This document shows positions 3,778 through 35,785 of a stretch of DNA of 64,000 bases, piece by piece. Both the position numbers and the translations under genes were made by a program. Numbering within the stretch: the stretch's first letter is position 1; the number at the start of each line of letters is the position of its first letter. Source of the DNA: an uncultured Bacilli bacterium (GTDB taxonomy: Bacteria > Bacillota_I > Bacilli_A > RF39 > UBA660); NCBI GenBank assembly GCA_944358875.1, contig CALVRZ010000001.1, forward strand, positions 20,214 through 84,213, written 5' to 3'. Below the pieces are notes generated by a model. That model saw only the letters and a list, made by a program, of their open reading frames with translations, was not told the origin of the DNA and ran no database searches.

Positions 3778-4662
3778 ATGGTTAAAACTTATAGTTATGC
3801 TAAAGATAAAGATGTTTTTTTGACAACGCATTTTAAAGTAGGAGAATTTCGAAGTTTTAATGATAAAACGGGGAAGCTTACAACTGATAAAATATTAATT
3901 GATGAAAATTTACCAGTAATGCTTGAAAATCTATATAGCCTTTTGGATAATAAATATGGTCTTAAGTCCATCGTTATTAATAGTGGTTATCGAAGTGATG
4001 ATTTTGAAGAATCTCTATCTGGTGGTGTTAGAGGTGGAACACATACGCAAGGAAAAGGTGCAGATATTGTTTGTTATAATAAAAAAGGAAGTGTTATTAA
4101 TAATAAAGAAGTTTGTTGTTTAGCTGAAGATATAGGATTTAAGGGTATAGGTTATGGTGGAACATATAGCCACGTCGATGTTCGAGATACTAAAAGTTTT
4201 TTTGATGAAACGAATGGAAAAACGGGAATTAGTAGCTTTTATAGTTATTTTAATATAGCTAAGGTAGATGATAATAGTGATACTCTTAATTATAAGATTG
4301 GAGATATAGTGTCTATTAATGGGGTATATGTATCAAGCGACGCTACAGAAAAATTAGTTCCAAAGATAAAGAAGGGAAAAATTACGAAGATAAAGTTAGG
4401 AAGTAAGAATCCATATTTGTTAGATGATGGTGCGATTGGTTGGGTAAATGATAGTGTTATTGTTAGTAATATTTACTTAGCTAATTTATCTTATGATGGC
4501 GATTCTATTGTCGATGCACTTTCTTTAATTGGTGTTGATAGTTCATATAACAATCGCAGTAAACTTGCTAAAGCGAACGGTATTACTAATTATAGTGGTA
4601 CAGCAGAACAAAATCTTAAATTACTTAGTTTACTTAAAAAGGGAGAACTTATTAGTATATAG
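3778..4662 (+). CDS. Peptidase M15-family zinc D,D-/L,D-peptidase-like cell-wall hydrolase with a C-terminal SH3b-like / cell-wall-binding-like region
   Basis: H-x(6)-D in HTQGKGADI plus downstream SHVDVRD (hedgehog/DD-peptidase Zn ligands). RBS GAAGGAGGG. The track's first codon is TTG; ATG at 3778 preferred. Confidence 0.55.
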   Translation: MVKTYSYAKDKDVFLTTHFKVGEFRSFNDKTGKLTTDKILIDENLPVMLENLYSLLDNKYGLKSIVINSGYRSDDFEESLSGGVRGGTHTQGKGADIVCYNKKGSVINNKEVCCLAEDIGFKGIGYGGTYSHVDVRDTKSFFDETNGKTGISSFYSYFNIAKVDDNSDTLNYKIGDIVSINGVYVSSDATEKLVPKIKKGKITKIKLGSKNPYLLDDGAIGWVNDSVIVSNIYLANLSYDGDSIVDALSLIGVDSSYNNRSKLAKANGITNYSGTAEQNLKLLSLLKKGELISI

Positions 4663-9565: not shown

Positions 9566-10218
9566 AAAGAAAAATAGCATATGTTATATTATTTATTTTA
9601 ATTATAATGGTAATCAGTATTATTTGTTTTGTTATGTTTTATCCTAAAGAAAAATTAGAAAATAATAAAACTGTTACTTCTTCAGAAATGATTCAGTATT
9701 TAGAAAGCAGTATGTATATGTATGGTGATTATTTAATTAATGATACTAATTATTTAGATCAATTTAATGTATCTAGGGAATATCATGTATATTTAGAAGA
9801 AATGTTAAATAGTGATAAATTTGATCAACAACCTTTAGAATTTTTAGAATGTGATTATAGTAATACTTATTTAAATATTATTATTAATTTGGAGAATGAT
9901 GATATATCATTAGATGCTATTACTGATTGTTTAGTTAATCAAGACCAATATGGAGTGTTTTATAATAGGCAAAAATTAGAAGATAAATTATTAGAATATG
10001 GTAAGGATATAGCTTCTTATTATGATACAACAGATATGGATGATAGTGCCACTATTGAAATTAATTTAGAACAATTACGGGATGTTTATAATCGTGATAT
10101 TTCAATGTTTATGGAAAATTATGACCTGAAAGAAACTAAAGTTTTGATTTCTTTTAACGAAGATACTAGTGGTTATAGTAATGATTATAAATGTGTTTTA
10201 ACTAAGAAAAATGATTGA
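9562..10218 (+). CDS. Membrane protein (single N-terminal TM) translationally coupled (ATGA overlap) to the pilin-like gene
   Basis: Hydrophobic N-terminus IAYVILFILIIMVISIICFVMF. The stop codon lies inside the 62-bp direct repeat. Confidence 0.45.
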   Translation: MKRKIAYVILFILIIMVISIICFVMFYPKEKLENNKTVTSSEMIQYLESSMYMYGDYLINDTNYLDQFNVSREYHVYLEEMLNSDKFDQQPLEFLECDYSNTYLNIIINLENDDISLDAITDCLVNQDQYGVFYNRQKLEDKLLEYGKDIASYYDTTDMDDSATIEINLEQLRDVYNRDISMFMENYDLKETKVLISFNEDTSGYSNDYKCVLTKKND

Positions 10219-10244
10219 CAATATACTTAATTTTATTATATAAT
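10183..10244. repeat. 62-bp perfect direct repeat, left copy, flanking the IS (target-site duplication)
   Basis: GATTATAAATGTGTTTTAACTAAGAAAAATGATTGACAATATACTTAATTTTATTATATAAT is identical at 12251-12312. It contains TTGACA-N18-TATAAT. Confidence 0.85.
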
Positions 10245-12250: not shown

Positions 12251-12312
12251 GATTATAAATGTGTTTTAACTAAGAAAAATGATTGACAATATACTTAATT
12301 TTATTATATAAT
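12251..12312. repeat. 62-bp direct repeat, right copy (target-site duplication)
   Basis: Identical to 10183-10244. Confidence 0.85.
12283..12312 (+). promoter_or_regulatory. Sigma-A-type promoter TTGACA-N18-TATAAT within the right repeat copy, positioned to drive the flp-like gene and feoAB
   Basis: Consensus hexamers. A duplicate sits at 10215-10244 just before the IS. Confidence 0.5.
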
Positions 12313-18383: not shown

Positions 18384-18423
18384 TTATTTATGATAGGAAC
18401 TGAGGGACGCCATGCGATTAATT

Positions 18424-18590
18424 GTTACTATTCACAGCTAAATTCGACAATTAATTTCTTTATTTTAAGGACTTTATTGTATTTTTGAGTTTATAAATAT
18501 GTGTAATAGCAAGTATTCACAGCCTATTTTTATCCAAATTTTAAATTTAAAGTACTATAAATTAAAGGGCAAAAGGCTGTGAATAGTAAC
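18424..18590. mobile_element. MITE-like 167-bp element, copy 1: 15-bp perfect terminal inverted repeats GTTACTATTCACAGC...GCTGTGAATAGTAAC, flanked by 8-bp direct repeat GATTAATT
   Basis: Near-identical copy at 32955-33121 with a different 8-bp flank duplication. No internal ORF. Confidence 0.8.
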
Positions 18591-18619
18591 GATTAATTAA
18601 AAAAACACTTAAAAAACTA

Positions 18620-26000: not shown

Positions 26001-26100
26001 AAGGCACCTGACTTTAACATTTGTTGGTCGGGTACTTATCTAAACTTATTTGGAAAGCATCTGATTCACATAATCAAATGTATCCTTTTTTATGAGGCGC
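26001..26100. repeat. Partial copy (hairpin module only) of the repeat that flanks the 511-aa gene
   Basis: AAAAGGCACCTGAC...GTCGGGTAC...GGAAAGCATCTGATTCACATAATCAAATGTATCCTTTTTTATGAGGCG is shared with 26337-26440 and 28498-28612. Confidence 0.75.
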
Positions 26101-26106
26101 TAATTT

Positions 26107-26440
26107 TTTTGTTATAAATTTATAAATTTATTTCATTTCTTGTTAGTTAAAATAGTAGTATTATAAATAATTATTTGATATTATAACTAACTGGATACAT
26201 TTTGAAGATCAGGTGCTTTCCTTTCTAATTTTATGCTAGAAAGGTAGGTGATATTTATGAGCAAAAGAGAATTATATCTTTATATCATAATATTACTTTT
26301 ATTTCTAGTAATATTTTTATTATTAAAATAAAAAAAGGCACCTGACTCAACGTTTGTTGGTCTGGTGCTTACCATACATATTTGGAAAGCATCTGATTCA
26401 CATAATCAAATGTATCCTTTTTTATGAGGCGTTTTCCTCA
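26107..26440. repeat. Long direct repeat, left copy (~335 bp): AT-rich leader, 24-aa hydrophobic-peptide ORF bracketed by inverted repeats (GATCAGGTGCTTTCC / AAGGCACCTGAC), then the hairpin module
   Basis: ~90% identical to 28262-28612 by eye. Confidence 0.75.
26257..26331 (+). CDS. Tiny hydrophobic peptide (24 aa, MSKRELYLYIIILLLFLVIFLLLK) inside the repeat unit; could be a type I toxin-like or leader peptide
   Basis: RBS AAAGGTAGGTG 6 nt upstream. Identical peptide encoded at 28420-28494. Confidence 0.3.
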   Translation: MSKRELYLYIIILLLFLVIFLLLK

Positions 26441-26617
26441 TATCTACATTATAGCATACGGCAGACTATGTCCGCAACCTAACATTTTGATTTTTTTTCA
26501 TAAAAAAATCAAAACCCTCCTATAATGAACATAAATGTAGTATAATACTACTCAAACAAATCGGAGACTACTTGGTATTACCGTTCTCTCCCGTATAATG
26601 AATGGAGTGGTTTTGAT

Positions 26618-28153
26618 ATGAATATAATAGAACAAAATAAGAAAAAAATCAATGGGAAATTAGAAACTTTTGACAGAATGATAATAAACGGATATTTATT
26701 AAACCTATGTAATTATAGACATTTTCTATATTATCTAATACAAAACAATATTCAATTAAAAGATTTTGATAAATTTGCTTTAGAACAAACAAAAGAATTA
26801 TGTAATCACATTGATAATTATATCAATGAAAATAACATTCAAACAATTTATCTTAATTCTGGTAAGATTGATAAAAATGAAATTGTTATGCGTGAATTAG
26901 ATAAAAATCCTAATAAAACTGGTTTAATATCTGTATTATCAGCAGTTGAAATATGTAATACTATGACTGTTAAACCAAATCATGAATCTCAAAAATTAGA
27001 AGTTACATCTAGACCTACTAAATGTAAACATTATTATTTTTATTTTAATGATAAAGAATTTGGTTTAATGTATTTAAAAATACAAACTTGGTTTCCTTAT
27101 AATGTTCAAATATATATTAATGGACGTGAATATTTATCTAAGTTGCTTGAAAAAAACAATATAAAATATGAAATGTATAATAATTCATTTTCATATATTG
27201 AAGATTTTTCAAAAGCTCAAAAACTTGCAGATGATATTCTTAACAAGAAGATTTCTGATTCATTTGATGGATTAATTAAGCAAATAAATATACACTTACC
27301 TAAAATAGAAAAAATATTTAGTCATTCTTACTATTGGTGTATTGATCAATGCGAGTTTGCAACCGACATTAATTTTAAGAGTCGTGATGACTTAAGTTTA
27401 TTTTATAAGACACTGGTTGAAACTGCATATTTCACTTTTAGTTCTGAAGATATTTATTCTTTCTTTGGTAGAAATGTATCTAGAATTCATACTTTTTCTA
27501 AAGGAGAAATTGTTTCTGATTTAAGAAACAGGTATCAAGGTTACCGAATAAAATTTAAAATAAATAATAATCAAATAAAAATGTATGATAAAGGAAACAA
27601 TTTAAGAATCGAAGTTACTATTAATAATCCAAAAGATTTTAAAGTCCTTAAAGAAAAAGAAAAAATTGTAGAACATAAAACATTAGAAAAAGAAAAAGTT
27701 TGGGTACCTATGGGTAAGAGTATATCTAACTTATATAGATATGTTGAAATAAGTAAATCTATTACTAAAAGGTATATTGAATCATTACCTCTAGTAAATA
27801 TTGATGAAGTTCCAATTTCTGATATAGAAAAACTTTCTTCTTCAATAACTGTTAATAATAAAAAATATACTGGTTTTAATATACTAGAAAAAGATACATT
27901 AAAACTTTTTTCTATTATTTCTAAGGGAGAATATTTAATTAATGGTTTTTCTAACAAGTCAATTAGAAAACAATATTTTGAAGGAGATATAACTTCTAAA
28001 GAAATAAATAGACTTACTAGACTATTATCTAAATTAAAAGCTCATGGACTAATTAAAAAAGTAGCTAGAAAAAACAAATATTATCTAACTACCAAAGGTC
28101 GTAAAATAACAAATAGTATATTGATCTATACTAAAAAAAAGTTGTTAAATTAA
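26618..28153 (+). CDS. Hypothetical 511-aa protein, very AT-rich, flanked by long direct repeats; likely horizontally acquired cargo of unknown function
   Basis: Long uninterrupted ORF with RBS-like GGAGTGG. No motif I can assign. Confidence 0.5.
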   Translation: MNIIEQNKKKINGKLETFDRMIINGYLLNLCNYRHFLYYLIQNNIQLKDFDKFALEQTKELCNHIDNYINENNIQTIYLNSGKIDKNEIVMRELDKNPNKTGLISVLSAVEICNTMTVKPNHESQKLEVTSRPTKCKHYYFYFNDKEFGLMYLKIQTWFPYNVQIYINGREYLSKLLEKNNIKYEMYNNSFSYIEDFSKAQKLADDILNKKISDSFDGLIKQINIHLPKIEKIFSHSYYWCIDQCEFATDINFKSRDDLSLFYKTLVETAYFTFSSEDIYSFFGRNVSRIHTFSKGEIVSDLRNRYQGYRIKFKINNNQIKMYDKGNNLRIEVTINNPKDFKVLKEKEKIVEHKTLEKEKVWVPMGKSISNLYRYVEISKSITKRYIESLPLVNIDEVPISDIEKLSSSITVNNKKYTGFNILEKDTLKLFSIISKGEYLINGFSNKSIRKQYFEGDITSKEINRLTRLLSKLKAHGLIKKVARKNKYYLTTKGRKITNSILIYTKKKLLN

Positions 28154-28261
28154 TCATCAGTAATTATACTGATTTGGGGTAAGGGGAATTCTACCCTTTT
28201 TTATATAATTGTATAAAAACTTGTTTTTTATTTAAGTATTTAGAATGCAATAGCATATAAA

Positions 28262-28612
28262 ACTTATTTTTGCTATAAATTTACTTTAAGTTTATTATAT
28301 ATCTTGTTAGTTAAATTGGTATTATTATAAAAGATTATTTGATATTATAAATAACTGGATGCATTTGAAGATCAGGTGCTTTCCTTTCTAATTTTATGTT
28401 AGAAAGGTAGGTGGTATTTATGAGCAAAAGAGAATTATATCTTTATATCATAATATTACTTTTATTTCTAGTAATATTTTTATTATTAAAATAAAAGGCA
28501 CCTGACTCAACATTTGTTGGTCGGGTGCTTATCCAAACTATTGGAAAGCATCTGATTCACATAATCAAATGTATCCTTTTTTATGAGGCGCTCCTCATAT
28601 CTACATTATAGC
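28262..28612. repeat. Long direct repeat, right copy (~350 bp), including the second copy of the 24-aa peptide ORF
   Basis: Matches 26107-26440 module for module. Confidence 0.75.
28420..28494 (+). CDS. Tiny hydrophobic peptide (24 aa), second identical copy
   Basis: Same RBS and coding sequence as 26257-26331. Confidence 0.3.
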   Translation: MSKRELYLYIIILLLFLVIFLLLK

Positions 28613-28831
28613 ATAAAAAATTTTTTTTTGCTATAAATTTACTTTAGATTTATTTTGTTTCTAGTAATGTTTGTTGGTTGAACACTAAATTAAATGTATT
28701 CTTTTGTTCTTATATGAAATAGTTCTTCATATTAGATATGTTGTATTATAAAGAAATTGTTTTGGTGATACTTTTTGCTATAACTTGATTTTTGTTTTTA
28801 TTTACCTTATAATAGTGGGAGAAAGGAAGAG

Positions 28832-32092: not shown

Positions 32093-32153
32093 ATAACGTC
32101 AAAAAAAAGTAGATAGTTGCTTTTTCTTTAATATTATGGTAGTTTATAGTTAG

Positions 32154-32948
32154 GTGTTAATGATGCGATTTAAAAAGGTATATATTGAAATAACTAATAG
32201 ATGTAATTTGAATTGTTCTTTTTGTAAGAATAATTCTAGATATAAAGAAGATATGTCTTTAAATAAATTTGAAATTGTTTTAAAGAAAATTAAGAAATAT
32301 ACTGATTATATATATTTACATGTTAAAGGTGAACCTTTATTACATAGTAATTTAGATGGGATACTTAATTTATGTAATAGATATAATATGAAAGTTAATA
32401 TTACGACGAATGGGGTATTATTACTTGATAAGATTAATGTTATTAAGAAATATAACAATATTAGACAAATTAATATTTCTTTACATAGTGAAAATAATAA
32501 GAGTAATTATTTAGATGATATACTTAAAGCAGTGGAATTAATTCCCAATATTTATATTAGTTATAGATTTTGGACTAATAATGATTTATTAAATAAATTA
32601 AAAGAATATTATAATTATAATAGTAGTAATGGTAATAAATTAAGTGATAAGAGATTTCTTAGTTTTGATAAAAAATTTATATGGCCTGATATAAATAATG
32701 ATTATTATAAAGAAAAGGGTTATTGTCATGGGCTTAAAAGTCATATTGGTATATTAGTAGATGGTAGTATAGTTATTTGTTGTTTAGATACGAATGGTGA
32801 TACAAAGATAGGTAATATATTTACAGATAATATTGATGATATTTTGAATAGTGATATGGTTAATAAAATTATAGATGGATTTAATAATAGATGTGTTTAT
32901 TTTGAATTGTGTAAGCATTGTTCTTACAAGGAGAAATTTGATAAATAA
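32154..32948 (+). CDS. Small radical SAM protein with a Cys-rich C-terminal (SPASM/twitch-like) region
   Basis: CNLNCSFC (CxxxCxxC), ITTNG, and C-terminal CHG...ICCLD...C...C...CKHCSY. Confidence 0.55.
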   Translation: MLMMRFKKVYIEITNRCNLNCSFCKNNSRYKEDMSLNKFEIVLKKIKKYTDYIYLHVKGEPLLHSNLDGILNLCNRYNMKVNITTNGVLLLDKINVIKKYNNIRQINISLHSENNKSNYLDDILKAVELIPNIYISYRFWTNNDLLNKLKEYYNYNSSNGNKLSDKRFLSFDKKFIWPDINNDYYKEKGYCHGLKSHIGILVDGSIVICCLDTNGDTKIGNIFTDNIDDILNSDMVNKIIDGFNNRCVYFELCKHCSYKEKFDK

Positions 32949-32954
32949 TTTATC

Positions 32955-33121
32955 GTTACTATTCACAGCTAAATTCGACAATTAATTTCTTTATTTTAAG
33001 GACTTTATTGTATTTTTGAGTTTATAAATATGTGTAATAGCAAGTATTCACAGCCTATTTTTATCCAAATTTTAAATTTAAAGTACTATAAATTAAAGGG
33101 CAAAAGGCTGTGAATAGTAAC
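32955..33121. mobile_element. MITE-like 167-bp element, copy 2, flanked by 8-bp direct repeat AATTTATC
   Basis: Same 15-bp TIRs and >95% identical interior to copy 1. Confidence 0.8.
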
Positions 33122-33205
33122 AATTTATCTGGAAATATAATAAATAAATATTTCTTTTTTATTTTGATTATGATATAATTAATTTATAGAATAAAGGGTG
33201 ATTAT

Positions 33206-35575: not shown

Positions 35576-35594
35576 TATAATACATTTAAAGCGT

Positions 35595-35785
35595 TTGATG
35601 AAGGAGTAGTAGTAATCTTCTTAATTTTAGAGAGTAAGTGGATGGTGGGAACTTATATTAAGAGATTATGAACTTGCCTTTGGAGTGTCTTTAGACCGGG
35701 TAATGCCGTTATACGTAAGTAAGTAATAAGGTAGGATGGTACCGCGTAAGAAACGCTCCTAGAATAGGGGTGTTTTTATTTGGAA
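35595..35785 (+). promoter_or_regulatory. T-box-like leader (tRNA-sensing riboswitch) upstream of leuS
   Basis: Conserved T-box-like element GGATGGTACCGCG at 35734-35746, a stem I-like AGAGAG...GGTGGGAAC region, and a terminator-like stem with T-run at 35750-35780. Possible Leu specifier CUU in GAACUUGCC. Confidence 0.5.

Follow-up and report, generated by a model that had tools for sequence, protein, structure and literature searches.

Two identical copies of a 167-bp noncoding element lie in the window, the 64,000-nucleotide stretch of DNA analyzed here. We conclude with high confidence that the element is a MITE that would have been mobilized in trans by an ISBst12-like transposase of the IS66 family, and that the copy at the second site would later have been inverted in place. 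The element has the anatomy of a MITE, its target is duplicated at both sites, and an allele without it exists in the same species. Furthermore, its terminal inverted repeat (TIR) is found at the ends of IS66-family insertion sequences (ISs), one of which is itself surrounded by an 8-bp duplication.

Anatomy of the element

Copy 1 lies at 18424-18590 and copy 2 at 32955-33121, both on the plus strand. The preliminary description of this DNA had put their identity above 95%; in fact the two copies match at 167 of 167 positions, and the identity ends exactly at the element borders. As it had also reported, the termini, GTTACTATTCACAGC and GCTGTGAATAGTAAC, are perfect inverted repeats. In copy 1 the left TIR (GTTACTATTCACAGC) occupies 18424-18438 on the plus strand and the right TIR 18576-18590 on the minus strand; the repeat is exactly 15 bp long, with position 16 being T on the left and C on the right. 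Between the ends lies an AT-rich interior of ~137 bp. In agreement with the claim that the element lacks an ORF, its longest stop-free stretch in any frame is 37 codons, and it holds no ORF of Pfam size.

A different 8-bp direct repeat flanks each copy, again as first described, and in both cases the two repeats agree at 8 of 8 positions. At site 1 the repeat is GATTAATT (18416-18423 and 18591-18598), and at site 2 it is AATTTATC (32947-32954 and 33122-33129), the left unit of which overlaps the stop codon of a radical SAM/SPASM gene at 32154-32948. Both copies are intergenic and lie between plus-strand genes. Copy 1 is 41 bp past the stop codon of an MFS transporter gene and 370 bp ahead of a gene for an SH3/cadherin-like/dockerin protein, and copy 2 is 85 bp ahead of a GH31 glycosidase gene.

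The internal half-site remarked on earlier proved to be real. This TIR-like site, GCAAGTATTCACAGCC, is found at 18509-18524 in copy 1 and at 33040-33055 in copy 2, on the plus strand in both, and has the exact 11-mer TATTCACAGCC in common with the right end of the element. In copy 1 it has the orientation of the left TIR and is inverted with respect to the right one. An exact match to the 10-nt TIR core within 137 nt would be expected ~3e-4 times by chance, counting both strands. The site is absent from the inside of the three full-length ISs checked.

The 64-kb window, which has a G+C content of 28%, contains no further exact copy of the 15-mer TIR beyond the two elements. Only two copies are documented for the species, and both are in the window. 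The FtsZ protein encoded in the window belongs to the same 90%-identity cluster as that of Clostridium sp. CAG:302.

An empty site in the same species

We compared site 1 among contigs that were picked because they encode an MFS protein identical to that of the window. Five of them (L195-L199) carry copy 1 unchanged, four end 28-52 nt inside it, and one, L204 (Logan SRR20950963), which derives from another sample of the same species, is without the element. The L204 junction reads ...CCATGCGATTAATTAAAAAAAATACTT... and contains a single GATTAATT; over 1294 bp the contig is 99.8% identical to a version of the window from which the 167 bp and one of the two GATTAATT repeats have been taken out. 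L204 is a clean empty site 1. The preliminary description had pointed to related strains as a place where such an allele might be found and had allowed that the flanking 8-mers could turn out to be part of the element. Since L204 has one GATTAATT, the 8-mers are duplicated target and not element sequence. The element has been active recently, which makes it a sound case of recent MITE activity in an uncultured gut bacterium of low G+C content.

Across both sites, seven short-read contigs break 15-52 nt inside the element, and L222 ends at the TIR itself. Contig ends of this kind are as expected of a repeat in an assembly graph, and in this way the small repeats of this family break metagenome assemblies. 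A further contig, L205, encodes a GH31 protein with 92% identity and has no element upstream of that gene; it was not counted as an empty site because the intergenic region differs.

Insertion sequences that share the ends of the element

We scanned genome contigs, with one genome per species, for the TIR plus 5 degenerate bases. The pattern matched at least 119 loci, compared with ~17 that we estimate would arise by chance. One pair of these ends, 1853 bp apart in the uncultured Mycoplasmatota MAG L095, encloses one long sense ORF of 534 aa. The encoded protein begins with a coiled coil and also contains a zinc ribbon and a DDE_Tnp_IS66 domain (PF03050, E = 1.4e-14). The first 21 nt of both ends of this IS are the first 21 nt of the window element, and the same holds for the ends of the ISs in L210 and L229. 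Against the NCBIfam model for IS66 (NF033517) the L095 transposase reached an E value of 4e-48, but its score of 164 bits is below the 180-bit cut-off, indicating that the TIR-linked transposases form a divergent clade.

Homologues of the L095 transposase with 37-99% identity are located between or beside the same 15-mer at 9 genome loci and in 5 metagenome contigs, in hosts labelled Lachnospiraceae, Blautia, Clostridia, Bacilli and Mycoplasmatota. Ends of 15-21 nt are common to L095, L189, L152, L180, L208, L212 and L229-L238, all of which have IS66-family transposase genes. In the protein database 747 proteins match the L095 transposase at E ≤ 1e-20, and among the matches listed PF03050 is present in 120 of 120. 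Most of the listed homologues are on contigs of ~1.8-2.5 kb, close to the IS itself in length, a pattern that a multi-copy repeat would be expected to give. Full-length ISs with GTTACTATTCACAGC ends are 1.75-2.3 kb long and have a single ORF; in related ISs of 1875 bp and 1752 bp, the transposase is the sole gene called between the TIRs. The 1752-bp IS, whose end is GTTACAATTCACAGC and whose TIR is perfect over 29 bp, was found in the same sample series as the window species.

Consistent with the earlier statement that no full-length IS with these ends is in the window, tblastn found no transposase homologue or IS66-type gene in the 64 kb. The expectation that the TIR would lead to a parent IS was borne out in part. 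ISs of the IS66 family with the same ends do exist; they come from other genomes and metagenomes, no autonomous partner was found for this species, and the likeness to the element is limited to the terminal 21 nt, with an interior that is similar to no sampled IS. Because no sampled IS matches beyond those 21 nt, the element is not a plain deletion derivative of any of them. MITE interiors that are unrelated to a known IS are common.

The TIR pattern also matched contigs binned to Proteobacteria and Bacteroidota. A MAG labelled Ruminobacter (L120, L126, L158 and L177) has the end of an IS that is also seen in L212 and L214, and these matches could reflect horizontal spread or mis-binning. A match was found in L171 (Moraxellaceae) as well. 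The matches in L078, L084 and L174 (Bacteroidales/Bacteroidetes) look like a conserved coding stretch.

Target duplications of 8 and 9 bp

The full-length ISs of this clade make 8- or 9-bp duplications. The 1875-bp IS is flanked by exact 9-bp duplications at four independent sites (TCAAAACAG, GATTATCTC, TTCCTGTTA and AACAAATAA), and the 1752-bp IS in L241 by another exact 9-bp duplication. Within the same clade, the 2209-bp IS of L180 (Lachnospiraceae) is flanked by the exact 8-bp repeat AGGCATTT. Around many further full-length copies in MAGs no duplication is seen, and we suspect that these result from recombination between copies or from chimeric assembly of multi-copy repeats. Since the two low-GC ISs that are likeliest in related hosts (the 1875-bp and 1752-bp ISs) give 9 bp and not 8 bp, the true partner of the window element is probably not among them. 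Given its 8-bp repeats at both sites, the element was probably mobilized by a clade member that makes 8 bp and that did not turn up in the sequences examined from this species. Within this one transposase clade, with the same ends throughout, the low-GC ISs (L229-L234 and L241) make 9 bp, and the Lachnospiraceae IS and all MITEs 8 bp.

Other small elements with the same ends

Dozens of unrelated elements of 37-202 bp in gut Firmicutes MAGs are bounded by this 15-mer. Those of 91-202 bp, which have unrelated interiors, come from both MAGs and isolates of Lachnospiraceae, Eubacterium and Clostridia. Exact 8-bp duplications flank 19 of the 27 distinct MITE-sized pairs, and none has a 9-bp duplication (0/27). 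The ~20 duplicated targets of the family have no consensus. Collectively, the ISs with the same ends, the empty site and these 8-bp duplications support the original proposal of transposition by a trans-acting transposase that duplicates 8 bp. In the mechanism that we favor, a transposase supplied elsewhere by a full-length relative would bind both 15-bp TIRs, and the element would be inserted at a target cut with an 8-bp stagger, repair of which would leave the 8-bp direct repeats.

Close relatives of the window element number only two, both truncated and both in other Bacilli MAGs: L092, with 89.5% identity over 143 nt, and L103, with 86% over 101 nt. BLAST searches of plasmids and phages with the element gave no match, and an internal 20-mer had none in viral contigs. 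The bare 15-mer matched viral contigs 69 times, always singly and never as a pair, and these matches were treated as chance. A metagenome scan with a pattern specific to the right end of the element returned 0 matches, and the window species seems to be absent from that collection.

The smallest members of the family are 36-37 bp long and consist of two ends and a 5-nt loop, as in GTTACTATTCACAGCCTTTTGGGCTGTGAATAGTAAC (Lachnospiraceae MAG UBA9423). At L083 1416-1452 and L145 892-928 they have exact 8-bp flanking duplications as determined by script; at L165 ~3958-3993 and in L129, where the flanks were read by eye, 8-bp duplications are apparent. Other copies of this size have no duplication or are placed at the end of larger MITEs. 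If mobile, these elements would be among the smallest transposable units.

Two orientations at site 2

Three contigs in full (L218, L219 and L220) and the ends of two more (L005 and L223) carry the element at site 2 as the exact reverse complement. The inverted element matches the reverse complement of the copy in the window without a mismatch (0 of 167) and occupies the same position between the AATTTATC repeats; in L219 one base of the left repeat has changed. Among 15 contigs, 10 (counting the window) have the orientation of the window and 5 the inverted one. The strains compared have 97.7-99.3% identity in the flanks. No sample yielded both orientations among its assembled contigs.

A second independent insertion is a very unlikely source of the flip, as the family shows no target consensus and the same 8 bp would have to be hit twice. 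Exchange with the other copy would instead delete the intervening 14.5 kb. An inversion in situ via the two inverted ends is therefore the best reading, and the alignments point to at least one such event at site 2. The likeliest route would be an exchange between the inverted 15-bp ends, by replication template switching or short-homology recombination; flipping driven by the transposase is a further candidate.

We considered two readings that give the inversion a larger role. The first extends the one favored here: the ends of the family would allow repeated flipping in place, by an IS66-type transposase or a host pathway, such that the element could serve as a reversible, strain-variable switch or insulator near genes such as GH31, and the same 15-bp end would suffice for transposition, as the 36-37-bp elements with 8-bp duplications suggest. 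We regard this as unlikely. Somewhat less likely still is that the element is mainly an inverton, flipped by a recombinase or by its own transposase and thereby changing expression of the GH31 or radical SAM gene, with its transposon features secondary. Invertons are stretches of DNA that lie between inverted repeats and are found either way round in gut bacteria. Site 2 resembles them in that a segment with 15-bp inverted repeats is found in both orientations, with identical flanks, within one species and in strains that are ~99% identical. In a tree built from the 4.1 kb next to the site, the inverted contigs are not limited to one branch, and the window has an inverted contig, L005, as its nearest relative. 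However, L005 shows the inversion over only 12 nt past the TIR, and a tree of this shape could also arise from recombination between strains. A weak promoter-like match in the element, TTCACA-18-TATAGT, would reverse direction with a flip, but the element and its surroundings contain about as many such matches as shuffled sequence does (6 compared with 5.0 expected). Unlike an inverton, the element has no invertase gene next to it: no recombinase domain was detected among the listed gene calls around either copy, in the window or in related contigs. The GH31 gene retains a conserved promoter region between the element and its start codon, in element-free alleles too. The copy at site 1 is inverted in none of the window and nine other contigs, and the target duplications and the empty site show that the element arrived by transposition. 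We found no literature that combines a MITE with an inverton.

Possible functions and origins of the copies

The preliminary description had raised a second function, as a small structured RNA or a protein-binding site, for which our analysis provides no support. In the strongest form of this idea the copies would be structured small RNA genes, binding sites or a regulatory hairpin duplicated by the host, with the ends as its stem, a reading that we consider very improbable. The folding energy is indeed well under that of shuffled controls (RNA z = -5.9 for the plus strand and -3.9 for the minus strand; DNA z = -4.9), and every contig of the species has the same 167 bp without change. However, in both predicted folds the two TIRs pair to form the outer stem, and no Rfam match to the element reached the gathering score; at E ≤ 1 there was one noise hit. 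Inside the element no terminator-like site was found, and scans for promoters and terminators gave no more there than in shuffled controls. Elements with the same ends have unrelated interiors, and 8-bp duplications, an empty allele and ends shared with transposase-bearing ISs would not be expected of an RNA gene. The empty site and the link between the TIR and the ISs largely refute this reading. We saw no evidence in these sequences that either copy regulates its neighboring genes; it is possible that the predicted hairpin acts on read-through transcripts.

That two full-length ISs inserted and each later lost its interior, leaving solo remnants that were never mobile when small, is hardly credible: decay of ISs by deletion is common and the ends of the element match those of ISs, but two independent deletions would not yield identical 167-bp products, the interior is unlike any sampled IS, and truncated relatives of the same small element exist in other species.

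Relation to known elements

IS66-family ISs are common in gut bacteria, and their mechanism is largely uncharacterized. Classical IS66 elements carry the accessory genes tnpA and tnpB, and members of the ISBst12 group make duplications of 8-9 bp. The full-length ISs that share the TIR resemble this group: their only ORF encodes a DDE_Tnp_IS66 domain, tnpA and tnpB are missing, the length is 1.75-2.3 kb and the duplications are of 8 or 9 bp. Unlike the members of the group, the window element is without a transposase, and the TIR-linked transposases fall under the NCBIfam cut-off for IS66; ISBst12-like here denotes a likeness in ORF content, length and duplication size. The ends of the ISs begin GTnACT..TCA..GC, and judged by eye GTTACTATTCACAGC resembles the ends of ISDge4. 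This ISBst12-group element from Deinococcus geothermalis has a single ORF, the TIRs GTGACTACTCAGCA and GTAACTGCTCAGCA, and an 8-bp direct repeat (PMC12898284).

The window element is otherwise of an ordinary kind, a MITE, and goes beyond it only in the inversion in place and in the 8- versus 9-bp duplications within one clade. Like Correia elements of Neisseria, RUP of Streptococcus pneumoniae and MITEPsy1/2 of Pseudomonas syringae, it is small, noncoding and intergenic, with TIRs and a target duplication, has ends in common with an IS family and is polymorphic for presence among strains. Unlike the window element, these are not known to be linked to IS66. RUP is tied to IS630-Spn1, and regulatory roles have been shown for Correia elements. 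A limited look at the MITE literature found no description of an IS66-derived MITE, and the TIR string was absent from a full-text search of the literature. The present data tie a family of small repeats, for which we found no description, to a poorly studied single-ORF branch of IS66, a connection that is useful for annotation; the 15-mer GTTACTATTCACAGC could mark the whole family in gut Firmicutes. The 8- and 9-bp duplications in one clade and the inversion in place are small leads on the IS66-type mechanism. MITEPsy1 has been tentatively tied to IS5 (PMC3189936).

Surroundings of the two sites

A GC-rich 17-mer, CTGAGGGACGCCATGCG, lies at 18400-18416, 7 bp to the left of copy 1; it occurs once in the window, where 0 occurrences are expected by chance. 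The same 17-mer is also present upstream of GH31 in L205 (146-162), the element-free related lineage with 92% GH31 identity. In two samples (L197 6500-8295 and L199 3090-5037) a different segment follows copy 1 and GATTAATTAAAAAAAC, 16 bp to the right of the duplication. It encodes a 444-aa minus-strand protein with an HTH_38 domain and a weak Peptidase_C39-like match, and may be another mobile insertion.

The region upstream of GH31 (window 32097-33131) varies among strains. In L216 and L217 (2834-2927) the radical SAM gene and the MITE are both missing, and ~95 bp are in their place. L221 (1-270) has another insert upstream of GH31, with three GGACATTTTAACTT repeats and a minus-strand gene. 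The break in homology upstream of GH31 falls 10-11 bp to the right of the MITE.

Other repeats occur elsewhere in the window. Direct repeats ~2160 bp apart, with units of 56-133 nt and 91-98% identity, are found at 26016-28680, where they flank a 511-aa ORF (26618-28153) that gave no match beyond a weak one to a winged helix. In the syntenic contig L001 this stretch is shorter, and no 511-aa gene separates the FtsZ gene from a 332-aa gene; the repeat region may reflect a duplication or an insertion. At 10183-10244 and 12251-12312 an exact direct repeat of 62 nt holds a consensus-like promoter, TTGACA ... TATAAT. Finally, a T-box leader (Rfam RF00230, 93.5 bits) is located at 35585-35763, upstream of a 113-aa ORF and a leucyl-tRNA synthetase-like gene.
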